Of a DNA stretch of 64,000 nucleotides, positions 1,859-37,656 are shown one piece after another; position 1 is the first letter of the stretch, and each line of letters begins with the position of its first letter. Position numbers and translations under genes: made by a program. The stretch is from an uncultured Solibacteraceae bacterium. GTDB taxonomy: Bacteria; Acidobacteriota; Vicinamibacteria; Vicinamibacterales; SCN-69-37. A model generated the notes under the pieces. That model made no database searches. It was not told the DNA's origin and saw only the letters and a program-made list of their open reading frames with translations. The stretch lies in NCBI GenBank assembly GCA_964419785.1, contig CAYQRM010000136.1, positions 5,305-69,304 of the forward strand, written 5' to 3'.

Positions 1859-3756
1859 GGGGCCGACTCGCGCGGCTCTCGCTCGCCTTCGTCGCAATGT
1901 TTATGCTCGGCCTCGCTTCGTCGGCCGCCGCGCAGAGCACTCCTCCTCGCGATACAAACGCGCCTCGGGTCGGCACCGCGATCCTCTCCGGCGTCGTCCT
2001 CACCGATGAAACCTCGCCGCGACCGCTGCACCGCGCCACGGTCGTCCTGTCGTCGGGCGAGGCTCGCTTTCCGCAATCGACGATGACGGATGAGGCGGGA
2101 CGGTTTGCGTTTACGCGACTCGCGGCGGGCAATTACTCGATTGTGAGCACGAAGCCCGGCTACGTCGCGGCGTATTACGGCGCGAAGCAAGCGGGCCGCG
2201 GACCCGGCGTGCCGATCGCGGTGCTCGACGGACAGCAGGTCGCCGACGTCACGATGAGGATGATGCACGGCGGTGTGATTTCCGGAACGATCACGACGCA
2301 GTCTGGCCGGCCCGCGGAGAACATCAACGTCATGGTCTATCGCGTCGACAACATCGGCGGCGCGCGGCGGCTGTCGCTGACGACGGTGAGCGTAAACACG
2401 GACGATCGCGGGATGTATCGAGCGTTCGGTCTTGCGCCCGGCGACTACGTTGTGCAGATCGGCGGGACACTCGCATCGTTTGCGTTGAATGGTGAAGCGC
2501 GGCTGGTCACATCTGCGGAACTTCGGTGGGCGGATCAGGTCAGCGGTGCCGCAGCGATCTCGCCTCCACCGCCCGGACAAACCGTCTCGTACTCGTCCAT
2601 GTACTTTCCGGGCACGCCTGATGTGTCGTCCGCATCCATCCTCACCCTTGGTCCGGCTGAGGAGCGCGATGGCGTCGACTTCTCGCTGGCGCTGGTGCCG
2701 ACAGCGCGCTTGTCCGGCCAGGTCCTCGACGCCGACGGCCGTCCGTTTCCCGGCGCGCAGATCACGGTCGCTCCCGCGGGCCCGGCGCAGGACCTGATGA
2801 CGATGCTGAGCGGATTCCGGACGATGAGCCGGTCGATGCCCGACGGGAATTTTGCTGTGACGGGCGTCACGCCTGGACCGTACACGATCAGCGTTCGCGC
2901 AACTCCACCCTCCGCCGGCCGCGGCGGATCGCCAGATGCCGCGATGATGGCCGCTGCTCGCATGCTCGGCGGTGTGGGGGGCAATGCTCCATCGTTGTGG
3001 GCGAACGCCGACGTCACCGTCGACGGGCGCGACATGTCCGACATCATCTTGCGTCTGCAACCCGGCATGACGGTGACGGGCAAGCTCGTGTTCGAGTCTT
3101 CATCCACGCCGCCGCCAGACGCGACGCGCGCGCGCGTCGCGTTGATGTCGCCGCCGACGGGATCATCGGCGATCGAATTGACGGCGTCGATGCTCACCGG
3201 CACGATGCAGGCGACAATCGCGCCCGACGGCACGTTGACGGTGCTCGGCGTCGCCCCGGGCAAGTATCGTGTGACGACGGGCGGGCTGGCGATGTTGATG
3301 GGTCAGAACGCCGTCGCTGCGGGCTGGACGATGAAGTCGGCGATGCTCGGCGGGAAGGACGTCGCCGACGCTCCGTTCGAAGTGCGTCCGAACGAGGACG
3401 TCACCGATCTCGTCGTGACCGTGACGGATCATCCGAGCGAGCTGTCGGGCACGGTGAAGGACCGCGCCGGCCGGCCGGCGCCAGGATTTCCGATCGTGGT
3501 CTTTTCGACGGACCGCGCGTACTGGACGGTGGGATCGCGTCGCGTCCAGCAGGCCCGACCGTCGAGCGACGGTCGGTACAAGATGACCGGGCTGCCCGGC
3601 GGCGAGTACTACGTGTGCGCGCTCACCGATTTGGATCAGAATCAGCTCTACGATCCGGCGTTTCTCGAATCACTCGTGTCGGGATCGTTCAAGATCGCGT
3701 TGACCGACGGCGAGAAGAAGACGCAGGACCTCACGCTCGCGTCCGGCGGGACATGA
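1855..3756 (+). CDS. Secreted carboxypeptidase regulatory-like domain repeat protein (paralog of the upstream gene)
   Basis: Signal peptide ending SSAAA|Q; four modules such as TDEAGRFAFTRLAAGNY, TDDRGMYRAFGLAPGDY, SSDGRYKMTGLPGGEY; 4-bp overlap with upstream stop. Confidence 0.85.
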   Translation: MRGRLARLSLAFVAMFMLGLASSAAAQSTPPRDTNAPRVGTAILSGVVLTDETSPRPLHRATVVLSSGEARFPQSTMTDEAGRFAFTRLAAGNYSIVSTKPGYVAAYYGAKQAGRGPGVPIAVLDGQQVADVTMRMMHGGVISGTITTQSGRPAENINVMVYRVDNIGGARRLSLTTVSVNTDDRGMYRAFGLAPGDYVVQIGGTLASFALNGEARLVTSAELRWADQVSGAAAISPPPPGQTVSYSSMYFPGTPDVSSASILTLGPAEERDGVDFSLALVPTARLSGQVLDADGRPFPGAQITVAPAGPAQDLMTMLSGFRTMSRSMPDGNFAVTGVTPGPYTISVRATPPSAGRGGSPDAAMMAAARMLGGVGGNAPSLWANADVTVDGRDMSDIILRLQPGMTVTGKLVFESSSTPPPDATRARVALMSPPTGSSAIELTASMLTGTMQATIAPDGTLTVLGVAPGKYRVTTGGLAMLMGQNAVAAGWTMKSAMLGGKDVADAPFEVRPNEDVTDLVVTVTDHPSELSGTVKDRAGRPAPGFPIVVFSTDRAYWTVGSRRVQQARPSSDGRYKMTGLPGGEYYVCALTDLDQNQLYDPAFLESLVSGSFKIALTDGEKKTQDLTLASGGT

Positions 3757-8674: not shown

Positions 8675-9235
8675 ATGGTGAGCTTGTCAGCGCTCTGGTT
8701 GCCCGTCCTGCTCTCGGCCGTCATCGTGTTCGTCGCGAGCTCGATCATTCACATGGTGCTCAGCTATCACAAGAACGACGTCAAGAAGGTTCCGCGCGAG
8801 GAGGACGTGATGGGCGCGCTGCGGCCGTTCAACCTTCCGCCGGGCGACTACGCGATGCCACGGCCCGCGTCGATGAAGGACATGGGCACTCCGGCGTTCA
8901 AAGAAAGAATGACGAAGGGGCCGGTCGTGTTCATGACGGTATTGCCGTCAGGGCCGTTCGAGACAGGCAAGCAACTTGGACAGTGGTTCGTGTACTTGAT
9001 CGTGATCAGTGTCTTCGCCGCGTACGTCGCCTCGCGCGCGCTGCCCGCCGGGTCGGACTATCTGGCCGTCTTCCGGTTCGCAGGGACGACCGCGTTCATC
9101 GGGTACGCGATGGCGATGCCCCAACAGTCGATTTGGTATCGCCGCAACTGGGGCACGACGCTGCTCTTGATGTTCGACGGGCTGCTGTTCGGGTTGCTGA
9201 CTGGCGGAACGTTCGGGTGGCTGTGGCCGCGGTAG
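8675..9235 (+). CDS. Conserved hypothetical membrane protein
   Basis: GAGGAGG RBS upstream; four hydrophobic segments; gene-like composition. Confidence 0.75.
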   Translation: MVSLSALWLPVLLSAVIVFVASSIIHMVLSYHKNDVKKVPREEDVMGALRPFNLPPGDYAMPRPASMKDMGTPAFKERMTKGPVVFMTVLPSGPFETGKQLGQWFVYLIVISVFAAYVASRALPAGSDYLAVFRFAGTTAFIGYAMAMPQQSIWYRRNWGTTLLLMFDGLLFGLLTGGTFGWLWPR

Positions 9236-9236
9236 G

Positions 9237-9469
9237 CATGAAGGACGTGAAGGGAATGAAGGACATGTAGTAAGAGAACCGCCCATCGATCTGACTGGCC
9301 GCCGGAGGCGGCCCAGGCGATTGGGCGAGGACACCTGGGAGCAAGAGCCAATAAACTGCCACGAGGCTCTTGTTCCCAGGTGCCCTCGCCCAATCGCGCC
9401 CGGCAAAGCCGGGTCGTCAGATCGATGGGCGGTTCCTTCATGAACTTCATTTCCTTCACGATCTTCATG
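9237..9469. repeat. 233-bp branched palindrome, copy 1 (REP/MITE-like)
   Basis: Terminal 9-mer arms catgaaggacgtgaagggaatgaag / cttcatttccttcacgatcttcatg; basal stem gaaccgcccatcgatctgac / gtcagatcgatgggcggttc; side hairpins ggccgcc-gga-ggcggcc and cccggc-aaa-gccggg; apical stem with loop aataaactgccacga. Confidence 0.9.
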
Positions 9470-9478
9470 CATCCCTGA

Positions 9479-9940
9479 TTGCAGTATCTGCACACCCTCG
9501 CCCATCCCTCCGTGCAATCGCCGCAATTCCGCACGGCGCGCCGCTTGCAGACGCGTTTCGACGTGCCGCTGATCGTCAGTCCCGTCGTGCAACGAATCAT
9601 CGGAGCCGCGATTACGGTTCATCGCGCTCTTGGGCCCGGGTTGTTCGAGTCGGTCTACGACCGCTGTCTGGAGTACGAGTTGCACAAGCAGGGCTTGACG
9701 ATGGCGCGTCAGGTGGCGCTTCCGCTCATTTACGACGGCCTTTCGATACCGTGTGCATATCGCGCTGACTTCGTCGTGCAGAACGAGGTGCTCATCGAGA
9801 TCAAGGCCGTCGATCGGCTGCTGCCGGTGCACGACACGCAAGTCCTCACGTACTTGCGGTTGTCCGGCGTTCGGCAGGGACTGCTCTTGAACTTCAACGT
9901 GCCGCGGCTGGTGGACGGGATCAGGAGCTTCCTTATGTAG
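9479..9940 (+). CDS. GxxExxY protein (PD-(D/E)XK superfamily, PDDEXK_3-like); true start may be the GTG before PLIVSP
   Basis: HRALGPGLFESVY (GxxExxY), YRADFVV..EVLIEIKAV (D..ExK), QVLTYLRLSG..GLLLNF. Confidence 0.92.
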   Translation: MQYLHTLAHPSVQSPQFRTARRLQTRFDVPLIVSPVVQRIIGAAITVHRALGPGLFESVYDRCLEYELHKQGLTMARQVALPLIYDGLSIPCAYRADFVVQNEVLIEIKAVDRLLPVHDTQVLTYLRLSGVRQGLLLNFNVPRLVDGIRSFLM

Positions 9941-9941
9941 A

Positions 9942-10174
9942 CATGAAGGACGTGAAGGGAATGAAGAACATGAAGTAAGAAGAACCGCCCATCGATCTGA
10001 CTGGCCGCCGGAGGCGGCCCAGGCGATTGGGCGAGGCCACCTGGGAACAAGAGCCTCGTGGCAGTTATTGGCTCTTGTTCCCAGGTGCCCTCGCCCCATC
10101 GCGCCCGGCGAAGCCGGGCCGTCAGATCGATGGGCGGTTCCTTCATGACCTTCATTTCCTTCATGACCTTCATG
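9942..10174. repeat. 233-bp branched palindrome, copy 2 (direct repeat of 9237-9469 with the central loop inverted)
   Basis: Same arms and side hairpins in the same order; loop tcgtggcagttatt is the reverse complement of the copy-1 loop apart from one A. Confidence 0.9.
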
Positions 10175-10230: not shown

Positions 10231-13053
10231 ATGAGTGCCGGTTCATCCCTGCTCGGTCGCGCCCTTACCCGGCGCACGACTCGTCTCGCGCTCGTGTTCG
10301 CCTTGGCGCTCGTGCCGCTCACCATCGTCGCGCAGCGTGGCGCGCCGCCGCAGGCGAAGCCGCCCGCGTCGCCCGACGATCAGATCATCGCCGCCGAGAG
10401 CTACCAGACGCCACAGAAGGAGCTGGCCGAGGCCGTGCTCGCGCCGCGGTATCTGAACGACAACCTGTCGAACTTGAGCCCCGACAAGAAGTGGTTCCTC
10501 AAGATGATCGGCGACGGCCCGGTCGTGATGACGACGTTCTCGAAGCCGTTCGATGAGCTCGGCGGCGTGTTCATCGACTGGAAAGCGAATCGCTCGCGCA
10601 CGCTGACGATCACCAACAGCATTGGCATCCAGCTGATCTCCGCCACCGACGGGACGAAGAAGAATATCCAGCTGCCGGCCAACGCGCGCGTGTCGAACGC
10701 GACGTGGTCCCCCGACGGCAAGTCGATTGCCTTCTACGTGCACGGCGACACCGCCACGCACATCTGGATCGCCAACGTCGCCACCGGTCAGGCCGCACAG
10801 CTCACGACGACGCCCGTGCTCGCGACGTTCGTCACGAGTTTCTATTTCAGCGCCGATGGCCGATCGATCGCCACGGTGTTGCCGCCAGACAACCGCGGCC
10901 CGCGGCCGGTCGAAGCGGCGCCCGTGCCAGCGGGACCCGAAGTGGAGGTCTCGTCCGGCACCAAGGCGAGCCTCCGCACGTTCCCGAGCTTGATGTCCAC
11001 ACCGCAGGATTTCGCGCTGCTGCGTTGGCACGCAACGGGTCAGCTCGCGATCATCGATGTTGCGACGAAGACCGTCCGCAAAGTCGGCGCGCCGGCGATG
11101 ATCCGCGCGATCGATCTTTCGCCCGATGGACAGTACGTGCGCGTGACACGGATGACCGATCCGTTCTCCTACATCGTTCCGGTCAGCAACTTCGGATCAG
11201 TCGAAGAGCTGTGGGATATCAGCGGCAAGTCCCTCGCGCGGCTGTCCGATCGTCCGATCAATCTCGGGGCGTCGGCTGACGACACGAATCCTGATCCGAA
11301 CGCCGCGCCTGGTGGCGGCGGTGGGCGAGGGCGCGGCGGTCAGACCGGCAAGCGCGAGTTCGCGTGGCGACTCGATGGGCCGGGTCTCACCTATCTCGAA
11401 CAGGAACCGCCGCCGGCACGGACGACGACCGCCGACGATGCGAACGCCGGCAACGCTGGTGCCAATGCCAACGCGGCGGGCCGCGGCGGCGCTCGCGGGA
11501 CCGGTCGCGGCGCGCCAGGCGCGCAGGGCCAGAATGCTCCGCCTCGCAAGGATCGGCTGATGGCGTGGGCGCCCCCCTTCGACGTCGCGAGTGCGAAGCT
11601 CATCTACGAGAACGCGACGACGATGTCGAACGTGCGATTCTCGCCGGACAACCAGATTCTGTTCTTCAACGAGACCGCGGGCGGCAACACCACGCTCTAC
11701 GCCGTGTACCTCAACGATACGGCCCAGCGTTACTCGCTGCAGGTGACGCGCGGCGGCGGCGGCGGCCGCGCGGGCGGCGGCGGCGCCAACACGCAGGCGA
11801 GTGACGACCCGAACACCGGCGGATCGCTCGTCGGCGTGCGCGGCACCGCGGGCGGCGGCGGACGCGGTGGCGGTGGCGGCGCTGGAGGACGCGGCGGTGG
11901 CGGTGGTGCCGGCCCGGTCATGCTGTCGGCCGACAAGAACGCCGTGTTCTTCGAGGGCACGACGTACGACAAGGATCCGCTCCAGGTCGGACCGAAGTCG
12001 TTTGTCGATCGCATGACGATTAAGACAGGCGAGAAAACGAATCTCTACACGAGCGACAACACCAATCAGTGGGAACGCGTGACGCAGATTCTCGACGCCG
12101 ACGCGAAGTCGTTCGTCGTCGTCCGCGAGAGCCCGAAGGACGTGCCGCAGGCGTACCTCGTGAACGGCACCACGAGGAAGCAGCTCACGGACAACAAGGA
12201 CATCGCCCCGGACCTCACCGCGGCGCCGAAGATGAAGGTACCGATCACGCGGCCAGACGGCTTCCACTTCACGGTGCGCGTCACGCTGCCGCCCGGCTAT
12301 CAGCCAGGGACCAAGCTGCCGGCGCTGTTCTGGGTGTACCCGTCGGAGTACGAGACGCAGGACGCGCACGACCGCACGGACCGAACGTTCAACAAGAACA
12401 CGTTCGAGAACTTCGGCGCGCGGTCGATGGAGTTCTTCTGCCGTCTTGGCTACGCGGTGATCGAGGACGCGCCAGATCACCTGCCGATCGTCGGACCGAA
12501 CGGCAAGGAGAACGACAATTACGTCGACGATCTCCGGAGCGACTTGCTTGCCGTGATCGACGAGCTCGATCGGCGCGGCGTGATCGATCGCACGCGGCTG
12601 GCGATTGGCGGCCACAGCTACGGCGCGTTCACAACCGTGAACGCGATGACCCACACGACCTTCTTCAAGGCGGGCATCGCCGGCGACGGCAATTACAATC
12701 GCACGCTCACACCGTTCGGCTTCCAGAATGAACGCCGCACGTTCTGGGAAGCGCCGGACGTGTACACGAACATGTCGCCGCTGTTCTACGCGCAGCACCT
12801 CTCAGGCGCGCTGCTGATGTACCACAACATGCACGACCAGAACGTCGGCACCGATCCGATCAACTCCGATCGTCTGTTCCAAGCGCTGAACGAGCTCGGC
12901 AAGACGGTCGCGCTCTATCGGTACCCGTTCGAGGACCACGGGCCGGTCGCGAAGGAGACGCTGCTCGACATGTGGGCCCGTTGGGGCGCGTGGCTCGACA
13001 AGTACGTGAAAAACGCGCCGCCGGCTGTTGTCAAACCTGCAGCGAGTCGCTGA
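10231..13053 (+). CDS. Secreted S9-family (prolyl oligopeptidase-like) serine peptidase with Gly/Arg-rich insertions
   Basis: GGHSYG nucleophile elbow, DQNV and EDHG triad positions, beta-propeller repeats (WSPDGK, LSPDG, FSPDN), signal peptide ..TIVA|Q. Confidence 0.9.
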   Translation: MSAGSSLLGRALTRRTTRLALVFALALVPLTIVAQRGAPPQAKPPASPDDQIIAAESYQTPQKELAEAVLAPRYLNDNLSNLSPDKKWFLKMIGDGPVVMTTFSKPFDELGGVFIDWKANRSRTLTITNSIGIQLISATDGTKKNIQLPANARVSNATWSPDGKSIAFYVHGDTATHIWIANVATGQAAQLTTTPVLATFVTSFYFSADGRSIATVLPPDNRGPRPVEAAPVPAGPEVEVSSGTKASLRTFPSLMSTPQDFALLRWHATGQLAIIDVATKTVRKVGAPAMIRAIDLSPDGQYVRVTRMTDPFSYIVPVSNFGSVEELWDISGKSLARLSDRPINLGASADDTNPDPNAAPGGGGGRGRGGQTGKREFAWRLDGPGLTYLEQEPPPARTTTADDANAGNAGANANAAGRGGARGTGRGAPGAQGQNAPPRKDRLMAWAPPFDVASAKLIYENATTMSNVRFSPDNQILFFNETAGGNTTLYAVYLNDTAQRYSLQVTRGGGGGRAGGGGANTQASDDPNTGGSLVGVRGTAGGGGRGGGGGAGGRGGGGGAGPVMLSADKNAVFFEGTTYDKDPLQVGPKSFVDRMTIKTGEKTNLYTSDNTNQWERVTQILDADAKSFVVVRESPKDVPQAYLVNGTTRKQLTDNKDIAPDLTAAPKMKVPITRPDGFHFTVRVTLPPGYQPGTKLPALFWVYPSEYETQDAHDRTDRTFNKNTFENFGARSMEFFCRLGYAVIEDAPDHLPIVGPNGKENDNYVDDLRSDLLAVIDELDRRGVIDRTRLAIGGHSYGAFTTVNAMTHTTFFKAGIAGDGNYNRTLTPFGFQNERRTFWEAPDVYTNMSPLFYAQHLSGALLMYHNMHDQNVGTDPINSDRLFQALNELGKTVALYRYPFEDHGPVAKETLLDMWARWGAWLDKYVKNAPPAVVKPAASR

Positions 13054-23748: not shown

Positions 23749-23862
23749 CTTGAAAGTCGAGAAGTCGAGAAGTCGAGAAGTCGGGAACTCGGGAAGTCGC
23801 AGCGAACACATGGCGCTGAGGCCAGCTTCACTCTTCAACTTCCCAACTTCTCGACTTTCAAG
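23749..23862. repeat. Inverted GAGAAGTC 8-mer arrays with perfect 17-bp terminal inverted repeats, between convergent ADOP genes
   Basis: cttgaaagtcgagaagt (23749-23765) / acttctcgactttcaag (23846-23862). Confidence 0.8.
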
Positions 23863-28717: not shown

Positions 28718-30895
28718 ATGGGTTCGTCAGCGCTTCACGACGCCACGAAAGGCATCATTGATTGGGGAAAGAGCGGCGCCAAGTCCGCGCAGCCGCGCGC
28801 GAAGGCGACCGAAATTTTTGGCTCACTGACTTTCAACGACGACGTCCAGCGTCGCCGGCTGCCGCGCGACGCGTACAAGTCGTTGCGGCGCACGATCACG
28901 CAGAGCCAGCCCCTCGATCCCTCGATCGCCGACGTCGTCGCGACCGCGATGAAAGATTGGGCCATCGAGCATGGCGCGACCCACTACACGCACTGGTTCC
29001 AGCCGCTCACCGGCATCACCGCCGAGAAGCATGACTCGTTCATCGCGCCGTCGCCGGAGGGCCGCGCGGTCGCGGAGTTCGGCGGCAAGGAGCTGATCAA
29101 AGGCGAGCCCGACGCGTCGAGCTTCCCGTCTGGCGGCATGCGGTCTACGTTCGAGGCGCGCGGCTACACGGCGTGGGATCCGACGAGCCCACCGTGGCTG
29201 CTCGTCGGTCCAAACGGCACGACGCTCGTGATTCCGACGGCGTTCGTGAGCTGGACTGGCGAGTCGCTCGACACGAAGACGCCGCTTCTGCGCTCGATTG
29301 AAGCGCTGTCCAAGCAGGCGATGCGCATTCTGAAGCTGTTCGGCTCGAAAGCCGAGCGCGTCGCGACGACGTGCGGACCCGAGCAGGAGTACTTCCTGAT
29401 CGATCGCCACTTCTATTTCGCTCGGCCCGATCTCATCAACGCCGGTCGGACGCTCTACGGCGCGCGCCCGCCGAAGGGCCAGGAGCTCGAAGATCAGTAC
29501 TTCGGCCACATTCCCGAACGCGTGCTCGCGTTCATGCACGAGGTCGAAAACGAGCTCTACAAAGTCGGCGTGCCGGTGAAGACGCGTCACAACGAGGTCG
29601 CGCCGAGCCAGTACGAAGTCGCGCCGATCTTCGAGATGGCCAACGTCGCCACCGATCATCAGATGATGACGATGGAGACCATGCGCCGCGTCGCGCCGAA
29701 GTACGGCCTGGCGTGCCTGTTCCACGAGAAGCCGTTTGCCGGCGTCAACGGCAGCGGCAAGCACCTCAACTGGAGCATGAGCGACGACCTCGGGAACAAC
29801 CTGCTGAACCCCGGCGACACGCCGCACGAGAACATTCAGTTCCTCGTGTTCTGCGCGGCGATGCTGCTCGCGGTGAACAAGTGGCAGGGGTTGCTGCGCA
29901 TGTCGATCGCGAGCGCGGGCAACGATCACCGCCTCGGCGCGAACGAAGCGCCGCCGGCGATCATCTCGATCTTCCTCGGCGACATGTTGACGGACATCTT
30001 TCAGCAGATCGAGAAAGGCGGCGCGAAGCAGACCAAGAGCGGCGGCATCCTCGACACCGGGGTGTCCGTGCTGCCGAAGCTGCCGCGCGACGCCGGCGAC
30101 CGCAACCGCACGAGCCCGTTCGCGTTCACGGGCAATAAGTTCGAGTTCCGCGCCGTGTCGTCCAACCAGAGCATCGCGTTCCCGAATATCGCGCTCAACG
30201 TCGCCGCCGCCGACGCGCTCGATTACGTCGCCACCGAGCTCGAAGCCGCGGTCAAGAGCAAGAAGTCGATCGAGAAGGCTGTGAAAGAACTGCTGCCGAA
30301 GTTGATCAAAGACAACAAGCGGATCATCTTCAACGGCAACGGCTATGCCGACGAGTGGCGCAAGGAAGCCGGCAAGCGCGGGCTCCTCAACTTGACCAAC
30401 ACCGTCGACGCGCTGACGGAGATCGTCAAGCCCGCCGTCATCAAGACGTTCGAGAAGCACAAGGTACTCAACGACCGCGAGCTGCACGCGCGCTACGAAA
30501 TCGCGCTCGAGACCTACGTGAAGACCGTGAACGTCGAGGCGCAGTTGATGGTGCTGATGGCCAACCGCTACATTCTGCCGTCGGCGCTCAAGTACCAGAA
30601 GGACGTCGCCGAGTCGGTCGCGGCAGTCCGCGAGGCGGGCGGGTCGACGAGAGAGGCGAAGAAGCTGCTCGGCGAGATCGCGTTGCTCGTCGACGAGCTG
30701 CGGGTGCGCGCCGACAAGCTCGCAAAAGCGCTCGATCACTCCGCCGGGAGCGCCGAGAAGCACGCCAAATTCGTTCGAGACACGGTCGTGCCGGCGATGA
30801 CCGCGTTGCGTGAGACGGGCGATCAGATCGAGCTGCTGATGCCCCACGAGACGTGGCCGTTGCCGACGTACAGAGAAATGCTGTTCATCAAGTAA
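28718..30895 (+). CDS. glnN: Glutamine synthetase type III
   Basis: [93 protein letters not shown]; GGAGG RBS. Confidence 0.96.
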
Positions 30896-31020
30896 GTCGA
30901 GTAAGTCGAGAAGTCGGGAGGTCGAAAGGTCGAAAGGTTGCGAAGGCGATCTACTTTTTGACTTCTCGACCTCTCGACTTTTTGACTTCTCGACTTCCTG
31001 ATCTCTCGACTTCTTGACCT
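30892..31020. repeat. Inverted GAGAAGTC-type 8-mer arrays between convergent genes, no cargo
   Basis: Left gtaagtcga gtaagtcga gaagtcgg gaggtcga aaggtcga; right gacttctc gacctctc gacttttt gacttctc gacttcct. Confidence 0.8.
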
Positions 31021-31021
31021 T

Positions 31022-33442
31022 CTATTCGCTCTTAAGCACTGTCACAGGATCGGTCCTCGCCGCGCGGACCGCCGGAATCAGCGTGGAGATCGCCGCGCAC
31101 GCGAGGATTGCGAGCCCGCCCGCGGCCATTGGCGCCGGGGCAAGCGGTGATACCTGAAAGAGCACGCGCGAAAGCAGCGGACCGGCGGCAGTCACGAGCA
31201 GCCAGCCGGCCGCGAGTCCCGCGCCCGCGAGCACGAGGCCGTGCGTCATGACGAGGCGACCGATGTCCACTGGCCGCGCGCCAAGGCTCAGCCTCACCGC
31301 AAGCTCGCGCTGACGCGACGTGACCGTCCACGAGAGCAATCCGTAGATCCCCACGACCGCGAGTACGAGGGCGAGCACACCGAAGGCGATCAGCAGTCGC
31401 ATCAACAATCGCGGCTGGGCGCTGAGCTGTTCGAAGCGCGCGTCGAGCATCTGCACGCGATCGAGCGGCAGCGTGCTGTTGGTCTCGCGCAGCGTCGAAC
31501 GCAACGCCGCCTGCAGTCCCGCCGCGTCCGAGCCACGCACGGTGATATCGAGCGACCTGTACGGAAACTGACGCGTCGTGTGGAAGATCGCCGGCTCGAT
31601 CGGCTGGCCGGGCGGCGTGTTGGCCGTGTCGCCGACGACGCCGATGATCTCGAAGGGCTGATCGACCAGCAGGTTGCGGCCCATCGGTCCGATCACGGTA
31701 ACGTGCGATCGCAGATGCTGACCGACCGCGCGCTCGCCCGGAAAGAATTGCTTCGCGAACGCCGCGTTGACCACGACCGCGGCTTGCGCCGCGACGGTAT
31801 CGCGCGTCGTAAACAGCCGACCGTCGATGAGCGGCATCGCAAGCGTCTCGAAATAGCCGTCAGTCACCGAGAAGTGCTGCGCGATGGGTGCGTCTTCCGG
31901 ACGCCGGTTGGGCCGCCCGACGATGTCGAAGGCGATCCGCCAGCCAGGCTCGAACGGCAGAAACGTCGTCGCACCGGCCGCCGTCACGCCAGGCTTCTGC
32001 CGGAGCTGGTCCAGAAACGACGCGTAGAACGCGTCGACCTGCGCCCAATCGCTGTACGTCGGACCGGTCAGCTGCAGGTTCGCCGTGAGCACGCCGGCCG
32101 ACGACACGCCGCTCGGTACGGCCACGAGTGCGGCGACGCTCTTCACGAGCAGCGCCGACGCCGTCACGAGCGCGCAGGCCAGCGCAACCTCCGCGACCAC
32201 GAGCGAGCGATGCGCGAGTCTGCCGCTCGTCGTCGACGTCCGATCGCCGTCACGCAGCGTCGAGGCCCGTCGCTGGCGCACCATGAGCAGCGAGGGGACC
32301 AGGCCGAAGCCGAGCGTCATCGCCGTGATGATGCCGACAACGACGCCGGCGACGCGCCAGTTGAGCGACACCTGATCGAGCCGCGGAATCGCGACGGGCA
32401 TCGTCGCGACGAGCACCTGCACCAGTCCCCAGGCGAGGACCAAGCCAACGCTGCCGCCGACGACCGAGAGCGCGGCGCTTTCCGCGATGAGCTCGCGCAT
32501 CAGGCGCAGCGGCGACGCGCCAAGCGCGACGCGTACGGCAAGCTCACGGCGTCGATCGAGCGATCGCGTCAGCAGCAGGCCGGCGACGTTGAACGCGCCG
32601 ATGAGCATCAAGAGAAGGACGGCGCCGAGCAGCACGAGGAGCGCGGGACGATAAAAGCCGAGTTGGCTCTCGAGCAGCGGCATCACGCGCGTGCTCCACG
32701 CGTGATTGGTCGTCGGAAAGGCGGCGGCAAGGCGACTCGCGAGCGCGGCGGTGTCACGCCCCGCTTGCTCGACGGTGATGCCCGGCGCGAGTCGCGCGAC
32801 CGTCTCCATGAAGTGCGCGGCGCGGCTGTGCTGCGTCAGGTCCCACTGCAATCGTTCCCACACATCGACGTCGTCCGGAAATGTGAAGCGCGGCGGCATG
32901 ACGCCAACGACGGTGTACGGCGTGTCGTTCAGCCGGATCGGACGGCCGATGAGCCCGCGATCCGCGTTGTATCGCGCGCGCCAGAGGCGATCGCTGATGA
33001 CCGCGATGAGCTGTCGGTCGTAGAACGGCCCATTCGCAGGAAAGCCCGGTCCGACTTCAGGCGTGACGCCGAGCAACTGGAACAGATTCGCGCTGACCTC
33101 AATTGTCTTCACGCGGACCGGTTCGATCGCATCGTCGGTCAAGTTGACGTCCGGCCGCCACCATGCGGCGGCATCCTCGAACGTGCCGTGCATCGCGCGC
33201 ACGTCCATGAAGTTCACGGGCGACACGCGCTCCTGGCGCAGTCCCTTCTCGTAGTTCGTATCCCACAGCGTGACGAGGCGATCCGGCGCGCGAAACGGCA
33301 GCGGCTTCAGGACGACCCCATCGACGATCGTGTACACCGCCGCCGCCGCGCCGATGCCGAGCCCGAGCACGACGACGGTGAGCGTCGCGAAGGCTGGGTG
33401 CTGGCGGAACTGACGAAACGCGATGCGCAGATCGTGGAACAC
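31022..33442 (-). CDS. ADOP-family duplicated ABC permease (no prefix domain)
   Basis: HDLRIAFRQF..HPAF, RRRELAVRVALGASP, RQRELAVRLSLGA, PAVRAARTDP..VLK. Confidence 0.92.
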   Translation of the reverse strand: MFHDLRIAFRQFRQHPAFATLTVVVLGLGIGAAAAVYTIVDGVVLKPLPFRAPDRLVTLWDTNYEKGLRQERVSPVNFMDVRAMHGTFEDAAAWWRPDVNLTDDAIEPVRVKTIEVSANLFQLLGVTPEVGPGFPANGPFYDRQLIAVISDRLWRARYNADRGLIGRPIRLNDTPYTVVGVMPPRFTFPDDVDVWERLQWDLTQHSRAAHFMETVARLAPGITVEQAGRDTAALASRLAAAFPTTNHAWSTRVMPLLESQLGFYRPALLVLLGAVLLLMLIGAFNVAGLLLTRSLDRRRELAVRVALGASPLRLMRELIAESAALSVVGGSVGLVLAWGLVQVLVATMPVAIPRLDQVSLNWRVAGVVVGIITAMTLGFGLVPSLLMVRQRRASTLRDGDRTSTTSGRLAHRSLVVAEVALACALVTASALLVKSVAALVAVPSGVSSAGVLTANLQLTGPTYSDWAQVDAFYASFLDQLRQKPGVTAAGATTFLPFEPGWRIAFDIVGRPNRRPEDAPIAQHFSVTDGYFETLAMPLIDGRLFTTRDTVAAQAAVVVNAAFAKQFFPGERAVGQHLRSHVTVIGPMGRNLLVDQPFEIIGVVGDTANTPPGQPIEPAIFHTTRQFPYRSLDITVRGSDAAGLQAALRSTLRETNSTLPLDRVQMLDARFEQLSAQPRLLMRLLIAFGVLALVLAVVGIYGLLSWTVTSRQRELAVRLSLGARPVDIGRLVMTHGLVLAGAGLAAGWLLVTAAGPLLSRVLFQVSPLAPAPMAAGGLAILACAAISTLIPAVRAARTDPVTVLKSE

Positions 33443-33486: not shown

Positions 33487-33917
33487 GGAAATGAGGCAAT
33501 GGGGCAATGAGGCAATGCGTGAATGTGCGTCAGGTGCTGCGGTTTTCCCGGAAGGTCCGCCGAGCGGCGGCAAAGATTGCGCGGAGTTCGCTGGCCTCCT
33601 GCAGCGCTGCGTCGAGTTCGCTGGCGCTGACAGGGCACCTAGCAGGGATCGCGCCTGGTGTTGTAGCGAGTCGGGCGAGGACCGCCCTGGCTATCTCCAG
33701 CCACAGCACGGACTCATCGGCCTCTTCTGCCGGTCAATGCAATCGACATACCCAATGCCGTAATCGCGAAGCCAGGGCAATGAGGCCGCAGGGCAGAGAG
33801 CTAATGCCCGTCCTGAGCCGCGTGGCGGGATCGCAGAATCTGCGATCCCGCTCGCGTCCGCGCATTTGCATTTTCTGCCATTCACCAATTGCCCCATTGC
33901 CCCATTGCCTCATTTCC
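33487..33917. mobile_element. Putative non-autonomous element with 39-bp terminal inverted repeats made of GGCAATG(A/G) 8-mers, enclosing a decayed four-helix-bundle gene
   Basis: Left ggaaatgaggcaatggggcaatgaggcaatgcgtgaatg vs reverse complement of right arm ggaaatgaggcaatggggcaatggggcaattggtgaatg (36/39). Mobility is inferred, not shown. Confidence 0.55.
33530..33733 (-). pseudogene. C-terminal fragment of a four-helix-bundle protein
   Basis: Minus-strand frame reads PAEEADESVLWLEIA...LDAALQEASELRAIFAAARRT, preceded by an in-frame TGA (33734-33736); N-terminal half not recognisable. Confidence 0.75.
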
Positions 33918-36427: not shown

Positions 36428-37656
36428 TCTACTTCTCGACTTCCCACTTCTCGACTTCCCGACTTCTCGACTTCTCGACTTTCGATGATCATCGCCGCGC
36501 CCATGCCGCCGCCAATGCACAAGGACGCGAGGCCATACCGCGCCTTTCGTCGTCGCATTTCGTAGACCAACGTCGTGACGAGCCGCGCGCCCGAGCAGCC
36601 GAGCGGATGTCCGAGGGCAATCGCGCCGCCGTTCACGTTGAGTCGATCCTCGGCGATCGGGAGGTCGACGAGACAGGCGAGCACTTGCACGGCGAATGCC
36701 TCGTTCAACTCGACGAGGTCGATGTCATCGAGTGTCAGGCCTGTTTGCGCGAGCACCTTGCGAATGGCCGGAACCGGACCGAGGCCGAAAAGCTCGGGTC
36801 GCACGCCAGCGGTCGCGTACCCGACGATCCGAGCGAGCGGCGTCAGACCCGCGCGGCGTGCGCGACTGGCTGAGGTCACGACCACCGCCGAGGCGCCATC
36901 GCTTGTCTGCGACGAATTACCCGCGGTGACGCTGCCATTTGCGTGAAACGCGGGTCTCAGCCTGGCGAGCGCGTCGGCCGAACTGTCGCGGCGCGGGCCC
37001 TCGTCGGCGGCAAAGCGAATCGTCCGCGCGGCCGGCCGTCCGCTCGGCGATGAATCGACGACGTCGACATCGACAGCGACGATCTCGTCGGCGAGCCTGC
37101 CTGCGTCGATCGCCGCGATTGCACGATGGTGACTGCGCAGCGCGAATGCGTCCTGCGCCTCGCGCGAAATCCGACTCTCGCGCGCATGATTTTCGGCGAC
37201 GAGGCCGGTCGTCAGATACGCGTCGGGATACTCGGTCACAAGATGCGGATTGGGCGCGATCTTGTTGCCGCCCATCGGCACCAGGCTCATCGATTCGGTT
37301 CCGCCGGCAATGACGACGCTTGCGCGGCCGAGCATCACGCGATCGGCCGCCGCGGCGATGGCTTCGAGTCCAGACGCGCAGAAGCGATTGATCGTCATCG
37401 CTGAGGCTTTGACCGGAAGGCCGGCGCGCAAGCTCGCCATCCGCGCGACGTTTAGACCCTGTTCCGCTTCCGGCATCGCGCACCCGAGAATCACATCGTC
37501 GACATCGTCGGCCGTGATGCCCGGTGCGCGGCGCAATGCTTCGCCGAGCACAACGGCGGCAAGGTCGTCAGGCCGCGTCGCGCGCAACGTGCCGTTCGGC
37601 GCCTTGCCGATCGGCGTCCTCACGGCCGAGACAATGACCGCGCTTTCGACCGTCAC
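36424..37656 (-). CDS. fadA: Acetyl-CoA C-acyltransferase (thiolase, FadA) with repeat-derived C-terminal extension
   Basis: TINRFCASG, NSSQTSDGA, ELNEAFA, NGGAIALGHPLG, SLCIGGGMG; tail SREVEKSGSREVGSREVE is encoded by the 8-mer array. Confidence 0.95.
   Translation of the reverse strand: MTVESAVIVSAVRTPIGKAPNGTLRATRPDDLAAVVLGEALRRAPGITADDVDDVILGCAMPEAEQGLNVARMASLRAGLPVKASAMTINRFCASGLEAIAAAADRVMLGRASVVIAGGTESMSLVPMGGNKIAPNPHLVTEYPDAYLTTGLVAENHARESRISREAQDAFALRSHHRAIAAIDAGRLADEIVAVDVDVVDSSPSGRPAARTIRFAADEGPRRDSSADALARLRPAFHANGSVTAGNSSQTSDGASAVVVTSASRARRAGLTPLARIVGYATAGVRPELFGLGPVPAIRKVLAQTGLTLDDIDLVELNEAFAVQVLACLVDLPIAEDRLNVNGGAIALGHPLGCSGARLVTTLVYEMRRRKARYGLASLCIGGGMGAAMIIESREVEKSGSREVGSREVE
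36431..36483. repeat. GAGAAGTC-type 8-mer array inside the 3' end of fadA
   Basis: acttctcg acttccc acttctcg acttcccg acttctcg acttctcg actttc. Confidence 0.85.

Follow-up and report, generated by a model that had tools for sequence, protein, structure and literature searches.

The stretch of DNA considered here, referred to as the window (64,000 nucleotides of contig CAYQRM010000136.1, from an uncultured Solibacteraceae bacterium of the Vicinamibacterales), carries a gene for a GxxExxY protein, a predicted nuclease of PD-(D/E)XK fold, between two copies of a branched palindrome of 233 bp (copy 1, 9237-9469; copy 2, 9942-10174). The locus raises the question of what kind of element this is and what the gene and its palindromes have to do with each other. 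The current analysis identifies it as a long-resident GxxExxY cassette bracketed by hairpins that are made of inverted arrays of short tandem repeats. In this Vicinamibacterales lineage the loop of each array hairpin carries a GC-rich palindromic core of 160 bp, which gives the four-way junction. The bracket architecture and its generality in the family are concluded with high confidence. The model as a whole, to which we give an even chance, is by analogy a partnership like that of repetitive extragenic palindrome (REP) hairpins, or REPINs, with REP-associated tyrosine transposases (RAYTs), in which a PD-(D/E)XK nuclease would take the place of the tyrosine transposase.

In front of each palindrome, separated from it by a single base, stands a GTAG (9232-9235 and 9937-9940) with the stop codon of the gene upstream; the palindrome ends read GCATGAAGG ... 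CCTTCATGC. When folded as single-stranded DNA each copy gives a four-way junction comprising a basal stem built of 9-mer repeats, a further stem of 20 bp, two GC side hairpins of 7 bp and an apical hairpin with a stem of 33 bp. The folding energy is -108.2 kcal/mol for copy 1 and -107.8 kcal/mol for copy 2 (z = -18.9 and -18.4), and none of 200 shuffled sequences folded equally well. Coordinates and folding confirm the geometry given in the first-pass annotation of this DNA, namely two 233-bp copies, each one base beyond a GTAG and cross-shaped when folded.

The basal stems of both palindromes are arrays of tandem 9-mers (CATGAAGGN). In copy 1 the forward array (CATGAAGGA CGTGAAGGG AATGAAGGA CATGTAG) occupies 9237-9270 on the plus strand and the reverse array (CTTCATGAA CTTCATTTC CTTCACGAT CTTCATG) 9436-9469 on the minus strand. 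Between them lie the left arm of the 20-bp stem, GAACCGCCCATCGATCTGAC (9276-9295, plus strand; partner 9416-9435), side hairpin 1 (GGCCGCC-GGA-GGCGGCC; 9297-9313, plus), the apical hairpin (9317-9397) with its 15-nt loop AATAAACTGCCACGA at 9350-9364, and side hairpin 2 (GCCCGGC-AAA-GCCGGGT; 9398-9414, plus). The forward and reverse 9-mer arrays of copy 2 lie at 9942-9975 (plus) and 10141-10174 (minus), and its loop, TCGTGGCAGTTATT, is found at 10056-10069. Three diagnostic motifs are confined to these four arms across the window, with about zero matches expected by chance. Alignment of the copies in both orientations confirms the earlier claim of direct side hairpins with an inverted apical loop: the side hairpins have the same order in both (GGCCGCC..GGCGGCC, then GCCCGGC..GCCGGG), and the two loops are reverse complements except for one base. 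The loop of copy 1 matches the inverted loop of copy 2 at 14 of 15 bases and is unlike the loop of the orthologue in the related contig L003, and a stretch of 44 nt in copy 1 is 98% complementary to copy 2.

Brackets of this kind are found throughout the family. A protein scan provided a sample of 80 metagenome loci with GxxExxY proteins 42-63% identical to that of the window. The 350 bp upstream and downstream of the gene are significantly similar to each other (E < 1e-4) in 38 of the 73 usable loci, the similarity being inverted in 30, as compared with none of 66 control positions shifted by 2.5 kb. The flank repeat nearly always consists of about three tandem units with a 7-nt core (CACGGAG, CACAGAG, CGCAGAG, CGCAAAG, [CG][AG]TGAAG or CACATAG), and the bracketing units span 8-11 bp. 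With a strict array defined as an exact 6-mer occurring three times at a period of 8-10, 108 strict arrays were counted in 550 kb of fetched loci and none in shuffled sequence, and at least one lies within 450 bp of the gene in 49 of 75 GxxExxY loci. The commonest layout is array > gene < array, and the reverse layout (< G >) is also present. The layout of the window, with an array hairpin on each side, recurs in L055, L060, L047, L065 and L092 and around the second gene of L023. A purine-rich array is about three times more frequent upstream, on the coding strand. The type of array follows the protein, similarity being 0.581 within array types and 0.518 between them, a difference reached in none of 2000 permutations. 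L023 encodes two GxxExxY genes 2.7 kb apart that have different array types. A long pure tandem array, TCAATCCGT x9, was also observed near the GxxExxY/hairpin region of L058 (2206-2282).

Cultured bacteria have such cassettes as well. Bacteroides finegoldii has a GxxExxY bracket between radA and the gene of an FAD-dependent protein. In Sphingomonas parapaucimobilis (NZ_CP155749.1; L115 1159-1622) a cassette with CGCGAAG arrays is situated between fabD and fabG, 33 nt after the former and 2 nt before the latter, in the fatty-acid synthesis operon.

The position of cassettes in such operon-like strings, abutting the upstream stop codon (fabD/fabG, radA and, in the window, the genes of a 186-aa protein and an S9 peptidase), could suggest a device that works in RNA: the arms would pair in the transcript, much as they do in 23S rRNA intervening sequences, and RNase III would excise or insulate the cassette from the host operon, or terminal hairpins would stabilise the mRNA. 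Consistent with this, no sigma-70 consensus was found in the leader of the gene and no promoter or terminator consensus was found, and the upstream, coding-strand preference of the purine-rich array points the same way. Among rRNA intervening sequences, those that carry open reading frames (ORFs) are flanked by inverted repeats (PMC4990558). An Rfam search gave sub-threshold miRNA-hairpin look-alikes only, with no match at the gathering score.

The conservation of the palindrome bears on this proposal. In an alignment of 10 full-length copies 95.8% of the cells pair, and 16 pairs have changed on both sides, as compared with 0-5 in slid controls. The apical stem, fast-evolving and yet still paired, holds 13 of these compensatory pairs. 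The sequence of the 20-bp stem, 17 of whose 20 pairs never vary, and that of the side hairpins have hardly changed. The basal array stem has the same 7-nt cores (ATGAAGG) in every copy and spacer bases that frequently fail to pair, so the arrays look like repeated sequence motifs and not merely like a stem; repetition of the core within an arm and unpaired spacers would be superfluous for a stem. Mismatches of G.T and A.C type on the gene-sense strand are balanced (27 and 23). In the simple inverted arms of other loci they number 15 and 7, and most mismatches are not wobble pairs, which argues against a structure selected in sense RNA. The reverse layout and the dispersal of solo hairpins in both orientations speak against an RNA device also, and we regard it as rather improbable. 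The arrangement operates at the DNA level.

The gene itself (9563-9940, plus strand) encodes 125 amino acids from a GTG at 9563 and ends in the TAG at 9938-9940, the open frame reaching back to a TTG at 9479. It is preceded by a leader of 93 nt (9470-9562, plus) that is kept in relatives. The product matches PF13366 (PDDEXK_3) with 137.5 bits (cut-off 22; 3e-40) and TIGR04256 (GxxExxY protein) with 141.2 bits (cut-off 35; 2e-41). The motif GLFESVY and the catalytic residues E29, D69, E79 and K81 are intact, these four residues being invariant in an alignment of 60 homologues. The AlphaFold2 model is confident (pLDDT 95.3), and its best Foldseek match is Cas4 SSO0001 (4ic1; E = 3e-4, TM 0.5), followed by exonucleases of lambda/RecE type. 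Profile scores and predicted fold agree with the earlier assignment of the gene as a GxxExxY protein of PD-(D/E)XK type, and the model describes a minimal PD-(D/E)XK core and not a resolvase like Hjc or RecU. The ratio of non-synonymous to synonymous substitution (dN/dS) is 0.07-0.25 in pairwise comparison with five relatives, which shows purifying selection on the protein.

PF13366/GxxExxY, for which one search gave thousands of matches, is a very large family, and its function is given as "Unknown" in a 2012 survey of PD-(D/E)XK proteins (PMC3424549). A sequence search of the PDB gave no solved structure matching the protein. No match was obtained in PHROGs, nor in viral contigs searched with the family alignment, and PADLOC returned a weak match only, to the core of a PD-(D/E)XK protein associated with defence-associated reverse transcriptases (DRT). 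Open-access literature and bioRxiv, as distinct from subscription journals and database family descriptions, contain nothing on the function or the flanking repeats of GxxExxY/PF13366/TIGR04256.

The host genes allow the history of the site to be followed. The palindrome of copy 1 starts one base beyond the TAG (9233-9235) of a gene for a conserved 186-aa membrane protein without a Pfam match (8675-9235, plus strand), which together with a gene of the GH2 family belongs to the neighbourhood of the cassette. Downstream is a gene for a peptidase of the S9 prolyl-oligopeptidase family (10231-13053, plus; Pfam). The motif TGCCATAAT stands just upstream of the S9 gene and is kept at an element-free site in L104. 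Relatives were collected as contexts of close nuclease homologues and of homologues of the 186-aa neighbour, and the junction of the 186-aa and S9 genes, defined by orthologues of the former, is called locus A.

Palindrome, gene and palindrome are kept in eight contigs from eight samples (L003-L010; protein 96% identical). In L004 an amidohydrolase gene precedes the element (1290-1370) in place of the GH2 and 186-aa genes, with about 30 nt like the 3' end of the 186-aa gene remaining; this junction is either a deletion or rearrangement ending at the palindrome or a chimeric contig. Four contigs of the window's own population are informative. L096 and L097, from two other samples, have an identical copy 1 with the flipped loop. 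In L094 the apical hairpin of copy 1 is precisely deleted, CAGGCG being joined to CCCGGC (3640-3650). L093 (3560-3800) has a single palindrome without a gene, whose left end is of copy-1 type and whose loop, in copy-2 orientation, and right end are of copy-2 type; either recombination of the direct copies produced it, or the assembly collapsed over 54 nt that are exactly the same in both.

Other relatives differ too. In L099-L102 the leader and the gene are together on the opposite strand, between array hairpins without the branched core. The left hairpin of L099 (3566-3712) has a forward array of 8 units, some with a 13-nt period (CATGAAGGAAGGG), and a reverse arm of 4 units, which indicates that arrays expand by slippage. 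L012 has short array-only hairpins, and its loop, AAGCCGC followed directly by GGGCTTTC, looks on its sequence like the remnant after deletion of the 160-bp core. L109 retains one branched palindrome in full and another with a part deleted. In both L012 (3641-3991) and L109 (2331-2681) a YCII-domain gene follows the 186-aa gene, whose stop codon it overlaps, and precedes the cassette; the two versions of it are 84% identical. In L103, whose 186-aa protein is 92% identical, a degenerate array is seen and the GxxExxY frame (860-1001) has an in-frame TGA directly after the GxxExxY motif; in a sister contig the host genes are only about 490 bp apart and no nuclease gene is called there, and this suggests pseudogenisation and loss. 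L104-L108 have no element and a spacer of 60 bp with CTCTTCACGTCGCTCATGGC, which is similar to the final two units in the reverse array, and judging from this resemblance the site is probably a scar and not a virgin target. The search for empty sites proposed in the first-pass annotation has therefore yielded a lone palindrome without a gene and an almost empty site, the latter probably not a naive target.

Comparison of 10 full-length copies reveals inversions at three nested levels. The apical loop of window copy 1 is opposite to those of window copy 2, both copies of L003 and copy 1 of L004, and that of L110 copy 2 is opposite to L011 copy 2 and L111 copy 2, so loop orientation does vary among copies. 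The whole core is inverted in all copies of L011 type, where the order of the side hairpins is swapped but the basal-stem bulge has not changed sides, and core orientation differs between the two copies of L109. The third level is the inversion of gene and leader in L099-L102. Deletions have removed hairpins in L109 copy 2 and L110 copy 1, as they did in L094. Two palindromes repeated in direct orientation are at the same time repeated in inverted orientation, and hence crossovers between them can delete or invert the gene, while conversion patches flip inner segments. The products expected from recombination of direct and inverted repeats, namely flips of loop and core, gene inversion, solo palindrome, deletions and scar, are all present. 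The flipped loop of copy 1 is most simply explained if the two copies paired in inverted register and underwent conversion or recombination. For insertion sequence (IS) elements, inversion of the intervening DNA by recombination between terminal inverted repeats is established (PMC3004938). Recombination, or template switching, is in our judgement the probable origin of the flips, and a hairpin-resolving enzyme is not needed for them.

The first-pass annotation had suggested a composite element free of transposase, whose cargo nuclease may cut its own cruciform ends. On this model nicking and resolution of the hairpin ends, as in parvoviral terminal repeats or hairpin telomeres, would give the flip/flop isomers, with the GTAG at their foot as recognition tetranucleotide. 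In its favour, the four-way-junction fold is like a Holliday junction, PD-(D/E)XK enzymes include junction resolvases, and loop isomers do exist. GTAG as recognition tetranucleotide fails on comparison, being present in the window and L003 and absent in L011, L012, L099, L109 and L110. The branched core, taken in that proposal as the key feature, is absent from most family members and has been lost from L012, L094, L099, L109 copy 2 and L110 copy 1; it is lineage-specific and often deleted, and the array is the part that is conserved family-wide. The element lies inside chromosomal contigs (up to 305 kb long), has host genes on both sides and is without linear ends. The nested flips together with deletions and gene inversion are typical of general inverted-repeat recombination, as reported for IS elements (PMC3004938). 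The closest structural matches of the modelled protein are of Cas4 and lambda-exonuclease type and not Hjc or RecU. For these reasons nicking or resolution of hairpins is a quite improbable source of the isomers.

Many of the contigs end inside palindromes, where metagenome assemblers often break, and an assembly artefact or chance palindromes might be thought of. The structures, flipped loop included, recur in more than ten independent contigs and samples, the architecture is present in finished replicons of a cultured strain, and the z-scores are about -19, so that this explanation can practically be dismissed.

The bracketed cassette is not unique to its place in the window. At an unrelated locus B, between a gene for a 101-aa protein and a MacB/FtsX permease gene, the whole unit of palindrome, gene and palindrome recurs (L011, L110, L111/L112), with a protein 78% identical and flanking palindromes about 72% identical to those of the window. 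The first-pass annotation was therefore right to treat the three parts as one composite, which has been established at two sites at least. An exact 20-mer scan of genome contigs gave two single chance hits only, the pattern being too strict, as relatives differ by 1-2 nt in the stem. The cassette persists at one locus across a synonymous divergence (dS) above 1. Cassette and host histories disagree in places: the locus-A cassette of L109 is closer to the locus-B cassette of L011 (non-synonymous divergence, dN, 0.083) than to that of L012 (0.170), the host sister of L109 by its 186-aa and YCII genes, and despite a close host L099 has the cassette that has diverged furthest (dN 0.249). As far as sequence can tell, this conflict points to cassette replacement or exchange between array-marked sites.

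Gemmatirosa kalamazoonensis KBS708 provides the richest case in a cultured genome, the cassette query matching at least 26 and at least 23 places on its two megaplasmids. The hairpin census covers 386 kb of the replicons and finds two GxxExxY genes, each with its own array type, both types being also dispersed. Gene 1 lies between two hairpins of CGCAGAGG type; another 11 loci hold solo hairpins of this type, which share identical 27-mers and end sharply (GAACCGCAGAGG...CCTCTGCGGTTC). Gene 2, at about 1,092.46-1,092.9 kb of NZ_CP007129.1, is intact; the palindromes on its two sides measure about 150 bp and have 11-nt GGACTGAAGAA arrays and the outer stem GACTCCACGTACG, and three further solo copies of this type were found. 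A third type (ACAGGATGA) has six solo loci and no gene in the 386 kb. As the bracketing hairpins are dispersed repeats, the comparison with REP elements in the first-pass annotation was right in spirit. Nesting was seen twice, a hairpin of CACGGAGG or CACAGAGG type being placed in the loop of one of CGCAGAGG type (L117 6355-6535; NZ_CP007129.1 about 1,083,850-1,084,000), which shows that hairpin loops are insertion targets. Loop insertion offers a single origin for the gene-in-loop layout and for the 160-bp core in the array-hairpin loop of the window. At NZ_CP007129.1 1,037,067-1,037,443 we also observed GGAGTGCCA x12 together with GGTGTCCCG and GTGCCCGGG blocks.

Arrays are found elsewhere in the window too. 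Hairpins of 8-mer AAGTCGAG arrays occur at 23750-23862 and 30890-31022, with 6-8 units per arm and no gene inside (fold z -3.0 and -5.5), and a third site at 36430-36484 has one arm only; all three are beside permease genes of MacB/FtsX type, and the window yielded no partner gene for these hairpins. The 8-mer GGCAATGR forms inverted arrays (33494-33517 and 33887-33909) that bracket about 370 bp with a decayed minus-strand ORF (...EEADESVLWLEIA...) that is broken by a stop codon. The remnant has no Pfam or NCBIfam match. Its intact relative P0259 (54% identical) matches PF05635 below threshold (E = 5e-4) and has GGCAATGG repeats upstream only, at its locus L118.

We suggest that the 7-nt cores repeated in its own flanking arrays are the DNA sequences which the nuclease recognises and at which it cuts. 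Breaks at the hairpins would promote their duplication and dispersal to new sites, and cutting would drive the exchange of cassettes between array-marked sites as well as the observed rearrangements; the host would retain the gene under purifying selection. Action of the nuclease on its own arrays, proposed by analogy, is plausible at somewhat less than even probability. More tentative is the possibility that GxxExxY proteins in general form a second hairpin-repeat partnership, independent of RAYTs, as minimal nucleases that propagate or maintain cognate array hairpins, with cassettes and hairpins entering loops.

Several observations weigh against the partnership. About a third to half of the GxxExxY loci have no detectable array. 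The window holds arrays without a GxxExxY gene, alone (AAGTCGAG) or around the decayed ORF at 33494-33909, so arrays are not exclusive to GxxExxY. Dispersed CATGAAGG hairpins were not seen in the window or in about 100 kb of relatives, only two loci being present in the lineage. Target-site duplications were not found on inspection by eye of simple elements and of the Gemmatirosa solo copies, and the insertion chemistry cannot be named as a result. The Gemmatirosa gene beside the commonest hairpin type (CGCAGAGG) is apparently frameshifted. The solo palindrome of L093 could be an assembly collapse over the 54-nt shared stretch.

Some of these points favour a different explanation, by which the hairpins are autonomous, like miniature inverted-repeat transposable elements (MITEs) or REPs moved by another enzyme or by recombination, and the gene is a passenger. 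Their loops would be favoured landing sites, GxxExxY genes and other small selfish genes would have settled in or between the hairpins, and the nuclease would serve an unrelated function such as homing, defence or repair. Solo hairpins outnumber genes, nested hairpins show that loops receive insertions, the array hairpins at 23750-23862 and 30890-31022 have no GxxExxY gene while those at 33494-33909 surround another ORF remnant, and the one frameshifted gene belongs to an abundant hairpin type. Against a passenger stand the covariation of array type with protein, two genomes in which each gene has its own array type, and the finding that in Gemmatirosa both types of hairpin that flank genes are also dispersed. 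Strong purifying selection and the long stay at one locus (dS > 1) agree better with a domesticated partner than with a stray passenger. We consider the passenger explanation the main rival, though unlikely, and retain the partnership of nuclease and arrays as the working model.

A reproducible DNA partner turns the orphan GxxExxY family into a testable case, in which it can be asked whether the protein binds or cuts its own arrays. The array hairpins form a class of intergenic repeats in Acidobacteriota and Gemmatimonadota that standard REP or MITE searches would miss, and array palindromes explain why assemblers break at these places. The flips, inversions and deletions are a natural series of rearrangements for studying how 230-bp cruciform-forming DNA is tolerated in bacteria. 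If the second partnership were true, it would amount to a new class of bacterial mobile or domesticated element spanning Acidobacteriota, Gemmatimonadota, Bacteroidota, Pseudomonadota and other phyla, and to a function for a large orphan family.

Among known systems, the intervening sequences of 23S rRNA with their S23p/PF05635 four-helix-bundle genes resemble the cassette in having a small orphan ORF in inverted repeats within essential transcription units, and the array-bracketed remnant of the window has an intact relative weakly matching PF05635. Here the element lies between protein-coding genes and not in rRNA helices 25/45, and the mismatches give no support for an RNA stem. The flip/flop termini of parvoviruses such as adeno-associated virus (AAV) and the hairpin-loop inversions of organelles likewise have a branched hairpin whose asymmetric parts reveal inner inversion, in two isomers. 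Unlike the viruses, the present element has no linear ends, Rep nickase or terminal resolution site, its only cargo gene is of PD-(D/E)XK type, and its inversions are multi-level and accompanied by deletions, as in the inverted-repeat recombination of IS elements (PMC3004938).

Integron cassettes share promoter-less small ORFs, imperfect palindromes and conserved unpaired stem positions (attC) with the present cassette, which differs in occurring once per locus and not as an array beside an integrase, its neighbours being the GH2, 186-aa and S9 genes. The palindromes were rejected as attC sites, as the R''/R' core sites (RYYYAAC/GTTRRRY) are absent and the ends read as given above (GCATGAAGG, CCTTCATGC). 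The PD-(D/E)XK enzymes of mobile DNA, namely TnsA of Tn7, Cas4 and I-Ssp6803I, would have the same catalytic fold according to the model; GxxExxY is much smaller and is without Fe-S cluster, accessory domains, partner transposase, intron or CRISPR context. MITEs and the Correia, NEMIS, BOX and ERIC elements are similar as short non-coding intergenic inverted repeats with nested insertions and sharp-ended solo copies. The array hairpins do have terminal inverted repeats, and differ in the lack of target-site duplications by eye, in arms that are internally tandem-repetitive and in a partner gene that is not a DDE transposase.

The closest likeness is to REPINs and REP-RAYT systems. In both, palindromic repeats of its own stand in inverted orientation on either side of a small enzyme gene, inheritance is vertical with long persistence and purifying selection, and the repeat type co-varies with the protein. 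Dispersed extragenic solo copies of the gene-flanking hairpins, a further trait of REPINs, were seen in Gemmatirosa, and for CATGAAGG palindromes none were seen in the window or in the flanks of relatives. The product of the flanked gene here is a 125-aa PD-(D/E)XK protein and not a Y1 HUH transposase, the hairpins are of 60-230 bp with stems of 3-8 tandem units of 8-11 bp as against GTAG-tagged REPs of 20-40 nt, and the lineage of the window has its repeat at two loci only. Array-bracketed GxxExxY genes are not described in open-access papers or bioRxiv on REPINs and tandem repeats, and priority elsewhere is possible. The system of nuclease and array hairpins does not belong to the REP/RAYT family, as neither the enzyme class nor a conserved GTAG (or CGTC) tag agrees; it nevertheless appears to work like one.

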